In this document: positions 18,042 to 21,785 of the stretch, piece by piece
How positions within the stretch are numbered: the stretch's first letter is position 1
Layout: the number at the start of each line of letters is the position of its first letter
From: Escherichia phage pEC-M719-6WT.2
Direction: 5' to 3' (one strand)
Sequence record: OQ845958.1
DNA: 64,000 bases
Position numbers and translations under genes: made by a program
Notes under the pieces: model-generated
The model's database searches: none
What the model saw: the letters and a program-made list of their open reading frames with translations, nothing else
What the model was told of the DNA's origin: nothing

Positions 18042-18610
18042 GTCTCTTTGATGATGACGTTCAATTAAACGAACATGAGGTTGCGTGGAAATCACGCGAC
18101 TTTAACAAAATTCAGGAATTGTCCGATTCATACAAAGAGAAAGCAGAAAATGAATTGTTCGCGATTCTTAATGATATAACCGTTAGTAAAAAACCACGAA
18201 ACCTGATTCAATCGGAAAACTACAATAAATTCTGGTTAGAAAACGCATTGAGCCAGCATGTCGATTGCATCATGCAGGTGAACGTGATGAACTTAATCGG
18301 TTCCGGGTTAACAGACCAACAGCATTATAATTATTTGCTGCATGCGGTTCCACAAGGCAAGCGTTATGGCAAATGGGCTAAGGCTGAGCCGGATGTAGTC
18401 AGCGTCCAGCTTGTGTTAAAGCTTTTAATGAAATATTATACAATTAATGCAGATGATGCTTTGATGTATATGGAAACATTGAAAGTCAAAGGTAGTCTTA
18501 AAGATGTTTTGAAAAAGACAAAAGGTCTGGTAACGGATGAATTCTTAAAGACCGTTACCAGTAATGTGAAAGAACAAAAAGAAATTAAAAAACAAATATT
18601 GGAATGGTAA
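18032..18610 (+). CDS. 62: clamp loader subunit gp62
   Basis: 192-aa ORF overlapping gp44 stop, before regA. Confidence 0.8.
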   Translation: MAVSLFDDDVQLNEHEVAWKSRDFNKIQELSDSYKEKAENELFAILNDITVSKKPRNLIQSENYNKFWLENALSQHVDCIMQVNVMNLIGSGLTDQQHYNYLLHAVPQGKRYGKWAKAEPDVVSVQLVLKLLMKYYTINADDALMYMETLKVKGSLKDVLKKTKGLVTDEFLKTVTSNVKEQKEIKKQILEW

Positions 18611-18611
18611 A

Positions 18612-18980
18612 ATGATTGAAATTACATTAAAGCAACCTGAAGACTTCCTGAAAGTTAAAGAAACTCTGACCCGTATGGGCATCGCAAATAATAAAGACCG
18701 TGTACTGTACCAGAGCTGCCACATCCTCCAGAAGCAAGGTCGTTACTATATTGTTCACTTCAAAGAAATGCTGCGCATGGATGGTCGCCAGGTGGATATT
18801 GATGGTGAAGACTATCAGCGCCGTGATTCCATCACTCAACTGCTCGAAGACTGGGGCTTAATCACTATCAAAGAAGAAGAGCGTAATGAATTGTTCGCAG
18901 TAACAAACAACTTCCGTGTTATCTCCTTTAAACAAAAAGACGACTGGAAGCTCGTAGCCAAATATACAATTGGTAATTAA
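18612..18980 (+). CDS. regA: translational repressor RegA
   Basis: 122 aa, MIEITLKQPEDFLKVKETLTRMGIANNKD... near-identical to remembered T4 RegA. Confidence 0.93.
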   Translation: MIEITLKQPEDFLKVKETLTRMGIANNKDRVLYQSCHILQKQGRYYIVHFKEMLRMDGRQVDIDGEDYQRRDSITQLLEDWGLITIKEEERNELFAVTNNFRVISFKQKDDWKLVAKYTIGN

Positions 18981-18990
18981 TTTAAAGCAA

Positions 18991-19009
18991 AGGGACTTCG
19001 GTCCCTTTT
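18991..19009 (+). terminator. hairpin AGGGAC-ttcg-GTCCCT with short T-run
   Basis: UUCG tetraloop hairpin after regA; only 4 T. Confidence 0.4.
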
Positions 19010-19040
19010 GTAGTATAATAGCGTCAAGTCATAAAACAAA

Positions 19041-19064
19041 AGTCAATCACTCGACTATAAAGGA
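19041..19064 (+). promoter_or_regulatory. putative gp43 translational operator (hairpin + SD)
   Basis: AGTC-aatcactc-GACT hairpin then UAUAAAGGA SD region before gp43 ATG; resembles the T4 gene 43 operator. Confidence 0.45.
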
Positions 19065-19070
19065 AACCAA

Positions 19071-21785
19071 ATGCAAGAATTTTATTTAACTATCGAACAA
19101 ATCGGTGACAATCTGCTCGAACGATACATTGACAAGAACGGTCATGAACGTGTTCGTGAAATCCCTTATGCTCCATGCTTGTTTATGCATGCTCGCGAAG
19201 ACCAGGCTGCAAAGTATACAGACATCTATAATAAAGGTTGTGTGAAAAAAGAATTCGATTCCATGCGTGATGCATCCCAGTGGATGAAGCGAATGAATGA
19301 CATGGGTCTCGAAGCTATGGGTATGGATGACTTTAAACTCGCATACTTGTCCGACCGTTACCCGCACGAAATCAAATACGATTCAAGTAAAATCCGTGTG
19401 GCTAACTTCGATATCGAGGTGACATCTCCTGATGGGTTCCCTGAGCCGTCTGAAGCACGTCACCCTATTGATGCCCTGACGCACTATGATTCGGTAGACG
19501 ATAAATTCTATGTCTTTGACCTTTTGAGCTCACCATACGCCACTGTGGAGCAATGGTCTATCGATATTGCTGCTAAGCTGCAAGAAGATGGCGGTGATGA
19601 AGTCCCTGAAGAAATCCTGGAAAAAATTGTTTATATGGCTTTCGATTCAGAAGAAGAAATGCTCCAGCAGTATTTGGTATTCTGGAACGAGAAAACTCCG
19701 GTTATGTTAACTGGTTGGAACATCGAGAAGTTTGATATTCCATATATCTACAACCGCCTTAAAAATGTATTTGGTGAAGCTACAGCAAAACGACTGAGTC
19801 CACATCGTCGTACAAAAGTTAAGGTCATTAACAATGGCTTCGGTGAAGAACAAGAAATCATTCAGATTCTGGGTATCTCTGTTCTGGATTATCTGGACCT
19901 GTACAAAAAGTTCAGCTTCACAAACCAACCGTCTTATTCGTTGGATTATGTTGCGGAATCTGAACTTGGTGTTGGTAAACTCCCGTATGATGGTCCGATT
20001 TCTAAACTGCGTGAATCAAATCACCAACGGTATATTTCTTATAACATCATTGATGTTTATCGTGTTGTGCAGATTGACCGTAAGCGGCAGTTTATTAACC
20101 TGAGTCAGTCAATGGGTTATTACGCAAAAATGCAGATTCAGTCTGTATTCAGCCCAATCAAAACTTGGGATGCGATTATCTTTAACAGCCTGAAGACTCA
20201 AAACAAAGTCATTCCGGAAACCAAATCGCATGTTCGCCAATCGTTCCCTGGTGCATTTGTTAAGGAACCGATTCCGAACGCATACAAATACGTTATGAGC
20301 TGTGACTTAACATCTCTGTATCCGAGCATCATTCGACAGATTAACATCAGTCCAGAAACGATTGCCGGGTCATTTGCACCAGCGCCGATGTACGAATACA
20401 TTGCAGGAACTGCTGACCGTCCATCTGATACATTTAGTTGTGCTCCAAACGGTATGATGTATTTTAAAGATGTTGCGGGTATTATTCCGACAGAAGTCAC
20501 CAAGGTGTTTAATCAGCGTAAAGAGCATAAAGGTTATATGCTTGCGGCTCAACGTAATGGTGAACTGATTAAGGAAGCCCTGCGTAATCCAGGAACTGGT
20601 ACAACCGAGCCTGAAGTTGATTATCGTTATGACTTTGATGACAATATGAAAACAACCTTGCATGGTCTGAATCAAACAGTTCTGAATGGTATGTTGTACA
20701 AAGCGCAAATGGAAGAAGTTGCAGGCATGACCGCACAGATTAACCGTAAACTGCTTATCAACAGTTGTTATGGCGCTCTGGGTAATATCTGGTTCCGTTA
20801 CTTTGACCTGCGAAATGCAACCGCGATTACATCTTTCGGACAACTTGCATTGCAGTGGATTGAGCGTAAAGTTAACGAATATTTTGATAGTGTTTGCGGT
20901 ACAAGTGGTGAAACATATGTATTCTATGGTGATACTGACTCCATTTATATCCAGTGCGATAACCTGATTAAAAAGGTTGGTGGTGAATCTAAATTCCGCG
21001 ATACAAACCACCTGGTTGACTTCATGGACAAGTTTGCGAAAGACCGTCTGGAACCGGCAATCGATAAAGCTTTCCGTGAGCTGGCTGAATACATGAACAA
21101 CAAACAACACCTTATGTTTATGGACCGTGAAGCGATTGCATGTCCTCCGCTGGGTTCTAAAGGTGTTGGTGGATTCTGGACAGCGAAGAAGCGTTATGCT
21201 CTGAACGTGTACGATATGGAAGGCACACGATACGCTGTTCCGAAACTGAAAATCATGGGCCTGGAAACTCAAAAGTCGAGTACACCAAAAGCATGTCAGA
21301 AAGCTCTGAAAGAATGTATCCGCCGTATGCTGCAAGAAGGTGAAGAATCTCTGCAGACATACTTCAAGGAATTCAACAAGGAATTTAATGAGCTTAACTA
21401 CATGACCATCGCAGGTGTATCATCAGTTAACAACATCCAGAAATATAATGAGGGTGGTTTCCCTGGATTTAAGTGCCCAGCTCATATCAAAGGCGTGCTC
21501 GCTTACATGCGTGCAACTAAAGGTATGAAGACTGTTCCACAAATCATGGAAGGGGAAAAGGTGTATGTACTTCCTCTTAAAGTTGGTAACCCGTTTGGCG
21601 AAACCGTGATTGCATGGCCATCAGGGATTGAACTCCCGATTGAAATCCGTGACCAGGTTCTGCAGTGGATGGACTACAACACACTGTTCCAGAAGACTTT
21701 TGTCAAACCGTTAACAGGGTTCTCTGAAGCGGCTAAGGTTGATTACGAGAAAAAAGCATCTCTTTTTGATATGTTTGATTTTTAA
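19071..21785 (+). CDS. 43: DNA polymerase gp43 (family B)
   Basis: 904 aa; exonuclease and polymerase motifs (FDIE, YGDTDS), N-terminus matches remembered T4 gp43. Confidence 0.97.
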   Translation: MQEFYLTIEQIGDNLLERYIDKNGHERVREIPYAPCLFMHAREDQAAKYTDIYNKGCVKKEFDSMRDASQWMKRMNDMGLEAMGMDDFKLAYLSDRYPHEIKYDSSKIRVANFDIEVTSPDGFPEPSEARHPIDALTHYDSVDDKFYVFDLLSSPYATVEQWSIDIAAKLQEDGGDEVPEEILEKIVYMAFDSEEEMLQQYLVFWNEKTPVMLTGWNIEKFDIPYIYNRLKNVFGEATAKRLSPHRRTKVKVINNGFGEEQEIIQILGISVLDYLDLYKKFSFTNQPSYSLDYVAESELGVGKLPYDGPISKLRESNHQRYISYNIIDVYRVVQIDRKRQFINLSQSMGYYAKMQIQSVFSPIKTWDAIIFNSLKTQNKVIPETKSHVRQSFPGAFVKEPIPNAYKYVMSCDLTSLYPSIIRQINISPETIAGSFAPAPMYEYIAGTADRPSDTFSCAPNGMMYFKDVAGIIPTEVTKVFNQRKEHKGYMLAAQRNGELIKEALRNPGTGTTEPEVDYRYDFDDNMKTTLHGLNQTVLNGMLYKAQMEEVAGMTAQINRKLLINSCYGALGNIWFRYFDLRNATAITSFGQLALQWIERKVNEYFDSVCGTSGETYVFYGDTDSIYIQCDNLIKKVGGESKFRDTNHLVDFMDKFAKDRLEPAIDKAFRELAEYMNNKQHLMFMDREAIACPPLGSKGVGGFWTAKKRYALNVYDMEGTRYAVPKLKIMGLETQKSSTPKACQKALKECIRRMLQEGEESLQTYFKEFNKEFNELNYMTIAGVSSVNNIQKYNEGGFPGFKCPAHIKGVLAYMRATKGMKTVPQIMEGEKVYVLPLKVGNPFGETVIAWPSGIELPIEIRDQVLQWMDYNTLFQKTFVKPLTGFSEAAKVDYEKKASLFDMFDF

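Follow-up and report, generated by a model that had tools for sequence, protein, structure and literature searches.

The gene 43 operator of phage T4, a textbook example of a protein controlling its own translation, served as the target in the first SELEX experiment. It was reportedly described by Andrake et al. in 1988 and Tuerk et al. in 1990, and the operator of RB69 (Mosigvirus) is said to have been studied by the Karam laboratory. In both T4 and RB69, gp43 is an autogenous translational repressor that binds a hairpin and the Shine-Dalgarno (SD) region (PMC3014915, PMC535899, PMC4661202). The loop of the hairpin, which is orthologous in the two phages, is the gp43 binding determinant (PMC3014915, PMC4661202), and its A5 and C6 bases are especially relevant (PMC3014915). 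The hairpin is 16 nt long in RB69 and 18 nt long in T4 (Uzan & Miller review, PMC3014915). Some T4-related gp43 proteins do not autoregulate (PMC3014915). There is no structure of a gp43-RNA complex (PMC3014915).

We analyzed a stretch of 64,000 nucleotides of phage DNA (the window) that contains a gene 43. An open reading frame at 19071-21785 on the + strand encodes a family B DNA polymerase of 904 amino acids with the Pfam domains of the family B exonuclease and polymerase (PF03104, PF00136). The protein is 75% identical to RB69 gp43 over its full length (904 amino acids) and approximately 60% identical to T4 gp43. Directly upstream, at 18612-18980 on the + strand, is the gene for the translational repressor RegA (PF01818, E = 2e-60), which ends with TAA at 18978-18980. 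The gene order is that of the T4 replication cluster, 45-44-62-regA-43, with all genes on the + strand; the four upstream genes encode the sliding clamp (gp45), the clamp loader (gp44 and gp62) and RegA. Approximately 2,670 phage records contain a match to gp43, and the gp43 of ECML-359 is 100% identical to that of the window. The region is 97-99% identical to Escherichia phages MN01 and ECML-359, Shigella phage SP18, and VR20, and 91-93% identical to VR7, VR25 and VR26. All seven phages belong to Gaprivervirus (Tevenvirinae), and the source phage is a Gaprivervirus-like T4-type phage.

An AGUC-loop-GACU hairpin had been predicted upstream of gp43, and the letters at 19041-19056 are as claimed. 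On the + strand, the stem AGUC/GACU (19041-19044 with 19053-19056) closes an 8-nt loop, AAUCACUC (19045-19052); read directly from the DNA, the letters are AGTC (19041-19044), AATCACTC (19045-19052) and GACT (19053-19056). The DNA following the 3' arm is ATAAAGGAAACCAA (19057-19070), and the gp43 ATG is at 19071. In the RNA this tail, AUAAAGGAAACCAA, is the single-stranded 3' part of the operator and contains the SD sequence AAGGAA at 19060-19065. The original prediction was right that a tail with an SD sequence lies 3' of the hairpin, but it wrote the tail as UAUAAAGG, which counts U19056 twice. The SD sequence begins 3 nt past the hairpin, and its GGA core (19062-19064) finishes 6 nt ahead of the AUG. 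The 3' end of the hairpin is 14 nt upstream of the ATG, a 5' leader position that adjoins the ribosome binding site. The stem has a folding energy of -2.2 kcal/mol and a pair probability of approximately 0.9 in a 65-nt leader context. The sequence AUAAA 3' of the stem is common to the leaders of the window, T4, JS98, Moon-like phages, Jiaodavirus and Kanagawavirus.

The hairpin lies in an intergenic region with several other recognizable elements. Directly 3' of regA, at 18989-19008, the + strand can be read by eye as a hairpin, AAAGGGAC-UUCG-GUCCCUUU, with a cUUCGg tetraloop; a scan called a terminator-like site at these positions on the - strand only. This CUUCGG hairpin is conserved in T4, RB69, SP18, VR7 and VR26. 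It looks like a terminator or stabilizer of the upstream 45-44-62-regA transcript, and it delimits the gene 43 leader region on the 5' side. A -10-like box, TATAAT, follows at 19014-19019 on the + strand; its alignment columns are invariant, and (G)TATAAT is present in nearly all relatives. The box is probably part of the promoter of gene 43, in which case the operator hairpin would lie approximately 15 nt into the leader. A sigma-70 scan gave no -35 partner for this box, and a TATAAT without a -35 is compatible with a T4 middle-type (MotA-dependent) promoter. T4, RB69 and JS98-type phages have GGAGTATAAT, with GGAG, right before the -10 box; the window has GTAGTATAAT, without GGAG. GGAG is the cleavage motif of RegB.

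The order of these elements is the same in T4, RB69 and the window. T4 reads regA-TAA, AAGGGGCUUCGGCCCCUU, GUAUAAU and then AGCCU-AAUAACUC-GGGCU-AUAAACUAAGGAAUAUCUAUG. RB69 has the T4 flanks, followed by AGAC-AAUAACUC-GUCU-AAAGGAAAUUAAAUG. The window reads regA-TAA, AAAGGGACUUCGGUCCCUUU (18989-19008), GUAUAAU and AGUC-AAUCACUC-GACU-AUAAAGGAAACCAAAUG. The entire intergenic architecture is therefore shared. Neither a promoter nor an operator is annotated in the regA-43 spacer in the GenBank and RefSeq records of T4, and the GenBank records of the inspected relatives have no regulatory feature at the operator site.

We compared the element across relatives collected by a regA-anchored search of IMG/VR, which gave 80 loci, in each of which the gp43 start was located. 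The element was present in 46 of 85 loci, comprising the records of T4, SP18, VR7, VR26 and RB69 and 41 IMG/VR loci, among the positive loci one that is putatively JS98 (L009). Twenty-three distinct leader sequences were obtained from these 46 loci, and 22 of them have the loop AAU[A/C/U]ACUC, the exception reading AAUAACUG. The stems are diverse and include AGCCU/GGGCU, AGUC/GACU, AGAC/GUCU, AGGC/GUCU, GGUCU/GGACC, AGUCC/GGACU and AGACC/GGUCU. Among 15 distinct hairpins, standard pairs were found in 86.7% of cells, compared to 60.9% in column shuffles, and none of 500 shuffles reached the observed value. Four of the five stem pairs had changes on both sides (21 cells). When the partners were slid by 1-3 columns as a control, pairing was only 15-45%. 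Across many genera, compensatory changes maintain the stem, and selection acts on the element to keep both the RNA stem and a loop that hardly varies.

A covariance model was built from 21 operators of other genera, leaving out the window and all Gaprivervirus. With filters off and both strands of the 64-kb window searched, the model gave a single significant match, at 19036-19073 on the + strand (34.2 bits, E = 1.8e-5). The runner-up scored 13.3 bits, approximately 21 bits lower. Over 281 kb of related loci there was one match in each of the 46 positive loci, always ending on the gp43 ATG, and there were no matches outside gp43-start sites. The model also matched separately fetched phages: Dhakavirus ABTNLsp5, Kanagawavirus ZX14, Jiaodavirus JEC and Providencia phage PSTCR6. 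What had been claimed for this site as a resemblance to the operator of T4 gene 43 goes beyond analogy and is one of orthology, as judged by position, flanks, loop, geometry and covariation.

The canonical element was not found in Krischvirus, Pseudotevenvirus, Slopekvirus, Aeromonas phage Aes151, Vibrio phage QD01 or Acinetobacter phage LemonAid. It is also absent from locus L019 (IMG/VR UViG_2706796257, a 158-kb T4-like phage) and present in the sister lineage L018. Since all of these phages do without the element, the regulation is dispensable. Between regA and gene 43, at 1903-2619, L019 has an open reading frame of 238 amino acids that carries an HNH-like motif (HHIIPK...NLV...H). The operator seems to have been lost naturally here, in association with the insertion of a homing endonuclease. 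In Aes151 (L213) there is a strong hairpin, AUGGCCUC-AACA-GAGGCCAU, approximately 15-45 nt upstream of the gp43A ATG at 223. It lies directly before the SD sequence of the split gp43A gene, where there is no T4-type operator, and it may be a mere regA terminator or an unrelated leader structure.

We think it very likely that 19041-19070, as the ortholog of the operator of gene 43 in T4 and RB69, is read by the phage's own gp43 to repress translation. This reading is based on the orthology with the T4 and RB69 operators, from which we infer both gp43 binding and the block of initiation, and on the 75% identity of the polymerase to RB69 gp43, a documented RNA-binding autogenous repressor (PMC3014915, PMC535899). 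Gene 43 would be at once the regulated gene and the source of the putative repressor. On the gene 43 mRNA, the weak 4-bp hairpin would present the loop AAUCACUC, with the SD sequence 3 nt downstream. When free gp43, not engaged on DNA, accumulates, it would bind the loop and the adjacent single-stranded tail (19057-19070). The bound polymerase would then occlude the SD sequence at 19060-19065 and repress its own translation. In T4 and RB69, binding to RNA and to DNA are mutually exclusive, and repression therefore occurs when the polymerase is not engaged in replication (PMC3014915, PMC535899, PMC4661202).

The loop of the window, AAUCACUC, is identical to the T4/RB69 loop, AAUAACUC, in seven of eight bases. 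The only change is at position 4, from A to C, and A5-C6 are kept. Both winners of the T4 SELEX experiment (Tuerk and Gold, 1990) reportedly have A at position 4, so the affinity for a loop with C could differ. On a rough tree made from the first 90 residues of gp43, loops with A, C or U at position 4 were interspersed. Sister lineages differ at this position (U in L015 and A in L016; A in L027 and U in L028; A in L014, U in L026 and C in L033), and G was never found there among the sampled operators. C is present in all sampled Gaprivervirus and Dhakavirus sequences and separately in L039 (putatively CC31-like), in Kanagawavirus and in L018. The loops can be sorted by their core: UAAC in T4 and RB69; UCAC in the window, JS98, CC31-like phages and Kanagawavirus; UUAC in others; and AGCAACCU, with the core CAAC, in Muldoonvirus. 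The switching between sister lineages suggests that position 4 is tolerated, and the simplest reading of these sequences is that it would not act as a specificity switch.

The Muldoonvirus leaders depart from the canonical loop. Serratia phage PS2 (NC_024121, L339) has GUCC-AGCAACCU-GGAC approximately 30-50 nt upstream of the gp43 ATG, at position 278 of the locus. Cronobacter phage VP8 (L208) and Serratia phages Muldoon (L337) and SP1 (L338) have the same site with one extra G; the PS2 loop is exactly 8 nt. The tail, GUUAAACUA...GAGGAAA, is homologous to the tails of canonical operators. The covariance model built on canonical operators did not detect this leader. Compared to AAUAACUC, AGCAACCU has four changes, at positions 2, 3, 7 and 8, giving a CAAC core. 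Loop positions 2 and 7 covary, A-U becoming G-C, and in the fold the stem is lengthened so that a CAAC tetraloop remains. The "major variant" recovered by SELEX has four changes from wild type (Gold 2015, PMC4661202) and a -CAAC- core, and it has been asked whether any phage natively carries it (Uzan & Miller 2010, PMC3014915). We found no report of a native "major variant" in Muldoonvirus in the searchable literature, and text matches to the octamers AAUAACUC and AGCAACCU were only unrelated siRNA or primer sequences. The Muldoonvirus octamer fits the "major variant" because it agrees with these two documented constraints and with the exact octamer that Tuerk and Gold (1990) reportedly recovered.

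The loop variants could also represent distinct specificity classes that co-evolved with their polymerases, such that the gp43 of the window would prefer C at position 4 and T4 gp43 would discriminate against it. It seems unlikely that such co-evolution accounts for the variants. If it did, the phages would contain natural, partly orthogonal polymerase-RNA pairs, and both SELEX solutions would have been found by evolution.

There are other ways in which a conserved hairpin at this position could function. It could be a leader element for another factor, or it could protect the mRNA 5' end against RNase E or act as a processing signal, with gp43 not binding at all; we consider this improbable. 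Such a role would fit the location of the hairpin, which a transcript beginning just past the TATAAT at 19014-19019 would carry approximately 15 nt from its 5' end, and the report that some T4-related polymerases lack autoregulation (PMC3014915). However, a stabilizer needs a stable stem and not an invariant loop. The stem here is weak (-2.2 kcal/mol) and varies, whereas seven of the eight loop bases are fixed across many genera. A fixed loop on a weak and freely varying stem is the signature of sequence-specific protein recognition, and the orthologous loop in T4 and RB69 is documented to be what gp43 binds (PMC3014915, PMC4661202).

RegA is another candidate protein, and the site could be an A/U-rich RegA target around the SD sequence and AUG of gene 43. 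The regA gene is adjacent, the tail AUAAAGGAAACCAAAUG is A-rich, and known RegA sites are A/U-rich and near start codons (PMC3014915). These targets, however, are without RNA structure and variable in sequence (PMC3014915), and a RegA site would leave the covarying stem and the invariant loop unexplained. In addition, the element accompanies gene 43 even where regA is not its neighbor. In Serratia phage 4S (MW082584, L340 1-390), the place of regA immediately before gene 43 is taken by a homing endonuclease gene whose annotation notes similarity to one in VR26, and the canonical operator AGAC-AAUAACUC-GUCU is kept. The genes upstream of the operator vary in closer relatives as well. SP18, VR7, VR20 and JS98-like phages have an extra hypothetical open reading frame of 216 nt (JS98 gp047-like) right after regA, located at 583-798 in the loci of both SP18 (L002) and VR7 (L003). 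This open reading frame is missing from the window (between 18980 and 18989), MN01 and VR26, and the CUUCGG hairpin, the TATAAT and the operator are unaffected by its insertion or deletion. Because the operator is kept in 4S, SP18 and VR7 despite the altered upstream genes, it travels with gene 43 and not with regA. We regard it as very unlikely that the site is a RegA target; RegA may at most have a weak additional effect on the tail.

A signal at the level of DNA is scarcely credible. In this explanation the hairpin would be an inverted repeat in a protein-binding site on double-stranded DNA, or the site would be a promoter-like TATAAA (the late-promoter-like CTATAAAG, 19055-19062), and the window, T4, JS98 and others do have TATAAA right after the stem. 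However, RB69 and several lineages without TATAAA keep the hairpin, and an inverted-repeat site would conserve the sequence of its arms and not complementarity alone. In addition, seven of the 15 distinct hairpins keep their pairing with G-U wobbles, and on the complementary strand these are mismatches. These wobbles are valid only in the + sense RNA, and the constraint is therefore on RNA and not on duplex DNA.

The hairpin considered by itself is unremarkable. Hairpins that combine a 4-bp stem with an 8-nt loop number 326 per strand in the window, and the fold of 19020-19085 has a z-score of -0.18 relative to dinucleotide shuffles; energy alone therefore cannot support the element. The motif AATNACTC occurs at 13 sites in the window, counting both strands, and only one of the 13, at 19045, has the flanking stem. 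We also scanned IMG/VR with gapped IUPAC patterns (loop, SD and ATG, and a variant with AGCAACCT). These patterns are loose, and the matches listed were almost all in unrelated contigs. The listed loop-SD-ATG matches in unrelated viral contigs, without those of the AGCAACCT variant, served as an empirical null. Among the matches listed, one of 120 such chance sites had a stem of at least 4 bp, and none of the 120 was located before gp43. A scan of 18500-19600 against Rfam 15 at a permissive E-value gave only sub-threshold chance matches, the best being preQ1-II with 20.5 bits against a gathering score of 47, and no Rfam family matched the gene 43 operator. The bare hairpin is not beyond chance; the combination of loop, stem and position is. 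That a 4-bp hairpin simply happens to lie upstream of this start codon, as the abundance of such hairpins and the fold energy would allow, has almost no probability and was rejected, given the covariation of the stem, its rarity at chance motif sites, the match in the window to a model that excluded its lineage and the single match at the gp43 ATG in each positive relative.

The element is of an already known kind, and the conceptual gain is small. The practical consequences are that annotation of the regA-43 intergenic region can be corrected in Gaprivervirus and Dhakavirus genomes, and that the comparative set defines the natural operator space, with a loop of AAU[A/C/U]ACUC, a stem of 4-5 bp that covaries freely and a spacing to the SD sequence that varies. 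The set also pinpoints lineages that lost the operator, and it is a panel for determining which positions of the loop and tail gp43 reads.

Among the known systems, the site can be compared directly to the RB69 operator. The two have the same intergenic position, a 4-bp stem with an 8-nt loop (16 nt), a folding energy of -2.2 kcal/mol and an SD sequence within 1-3 nt. They differ in the loop core, UAAC in RB69 and UCAC in the window; in the third stem pair, A-U in RB69 and U-A in the window, a compensatory flip; and in the two additional bases (AU) between the stem and AAAGG in the window. The T4 operator likewise follows the CUUCGG hairpin of regA and the TATAAT, shares seven of eight loop bases and the AUAAA 3' of the stem, and contains the SD sequence. 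In contrast to the 4-bp stem of the window, its stem has 5 bp, the closing pair being U-G (18 nt, -5.2 kcal/mol), and the spacing between hairpin and SD sequence is 8 nt in T4 and 3 nt in the window. The Muldoonvirus leader (PS2, Muldoon, SP1, VP8) has the position before gp43, a 4-bp stem and a homologous 3' tail in common with the window, but its loop is AGCAACCU and its stem can be extended to a CAAC tetraloop. At the T4 gene 32 operator, a replication protein also represses its own mRNA at a leader around the ribosome binding site (PMC3014915, PMC535899). That operator uses a 5' pseudoknot and cooperative binding on unstructured A/U-rich RNA, and there is nothing of this type in the window. 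RegA sites are similar in that repression occurs at the translation initiation region of T4 early and middle mRNAs and in that the regulator gene is adjacent. They are unstructured and variable, whereas the element in the window is a covarying hairpin with an invariant loop. In its position, geometry, orthology and cognate polymerase, the element has the characteristics expected of a T4-type gene 43 operator.
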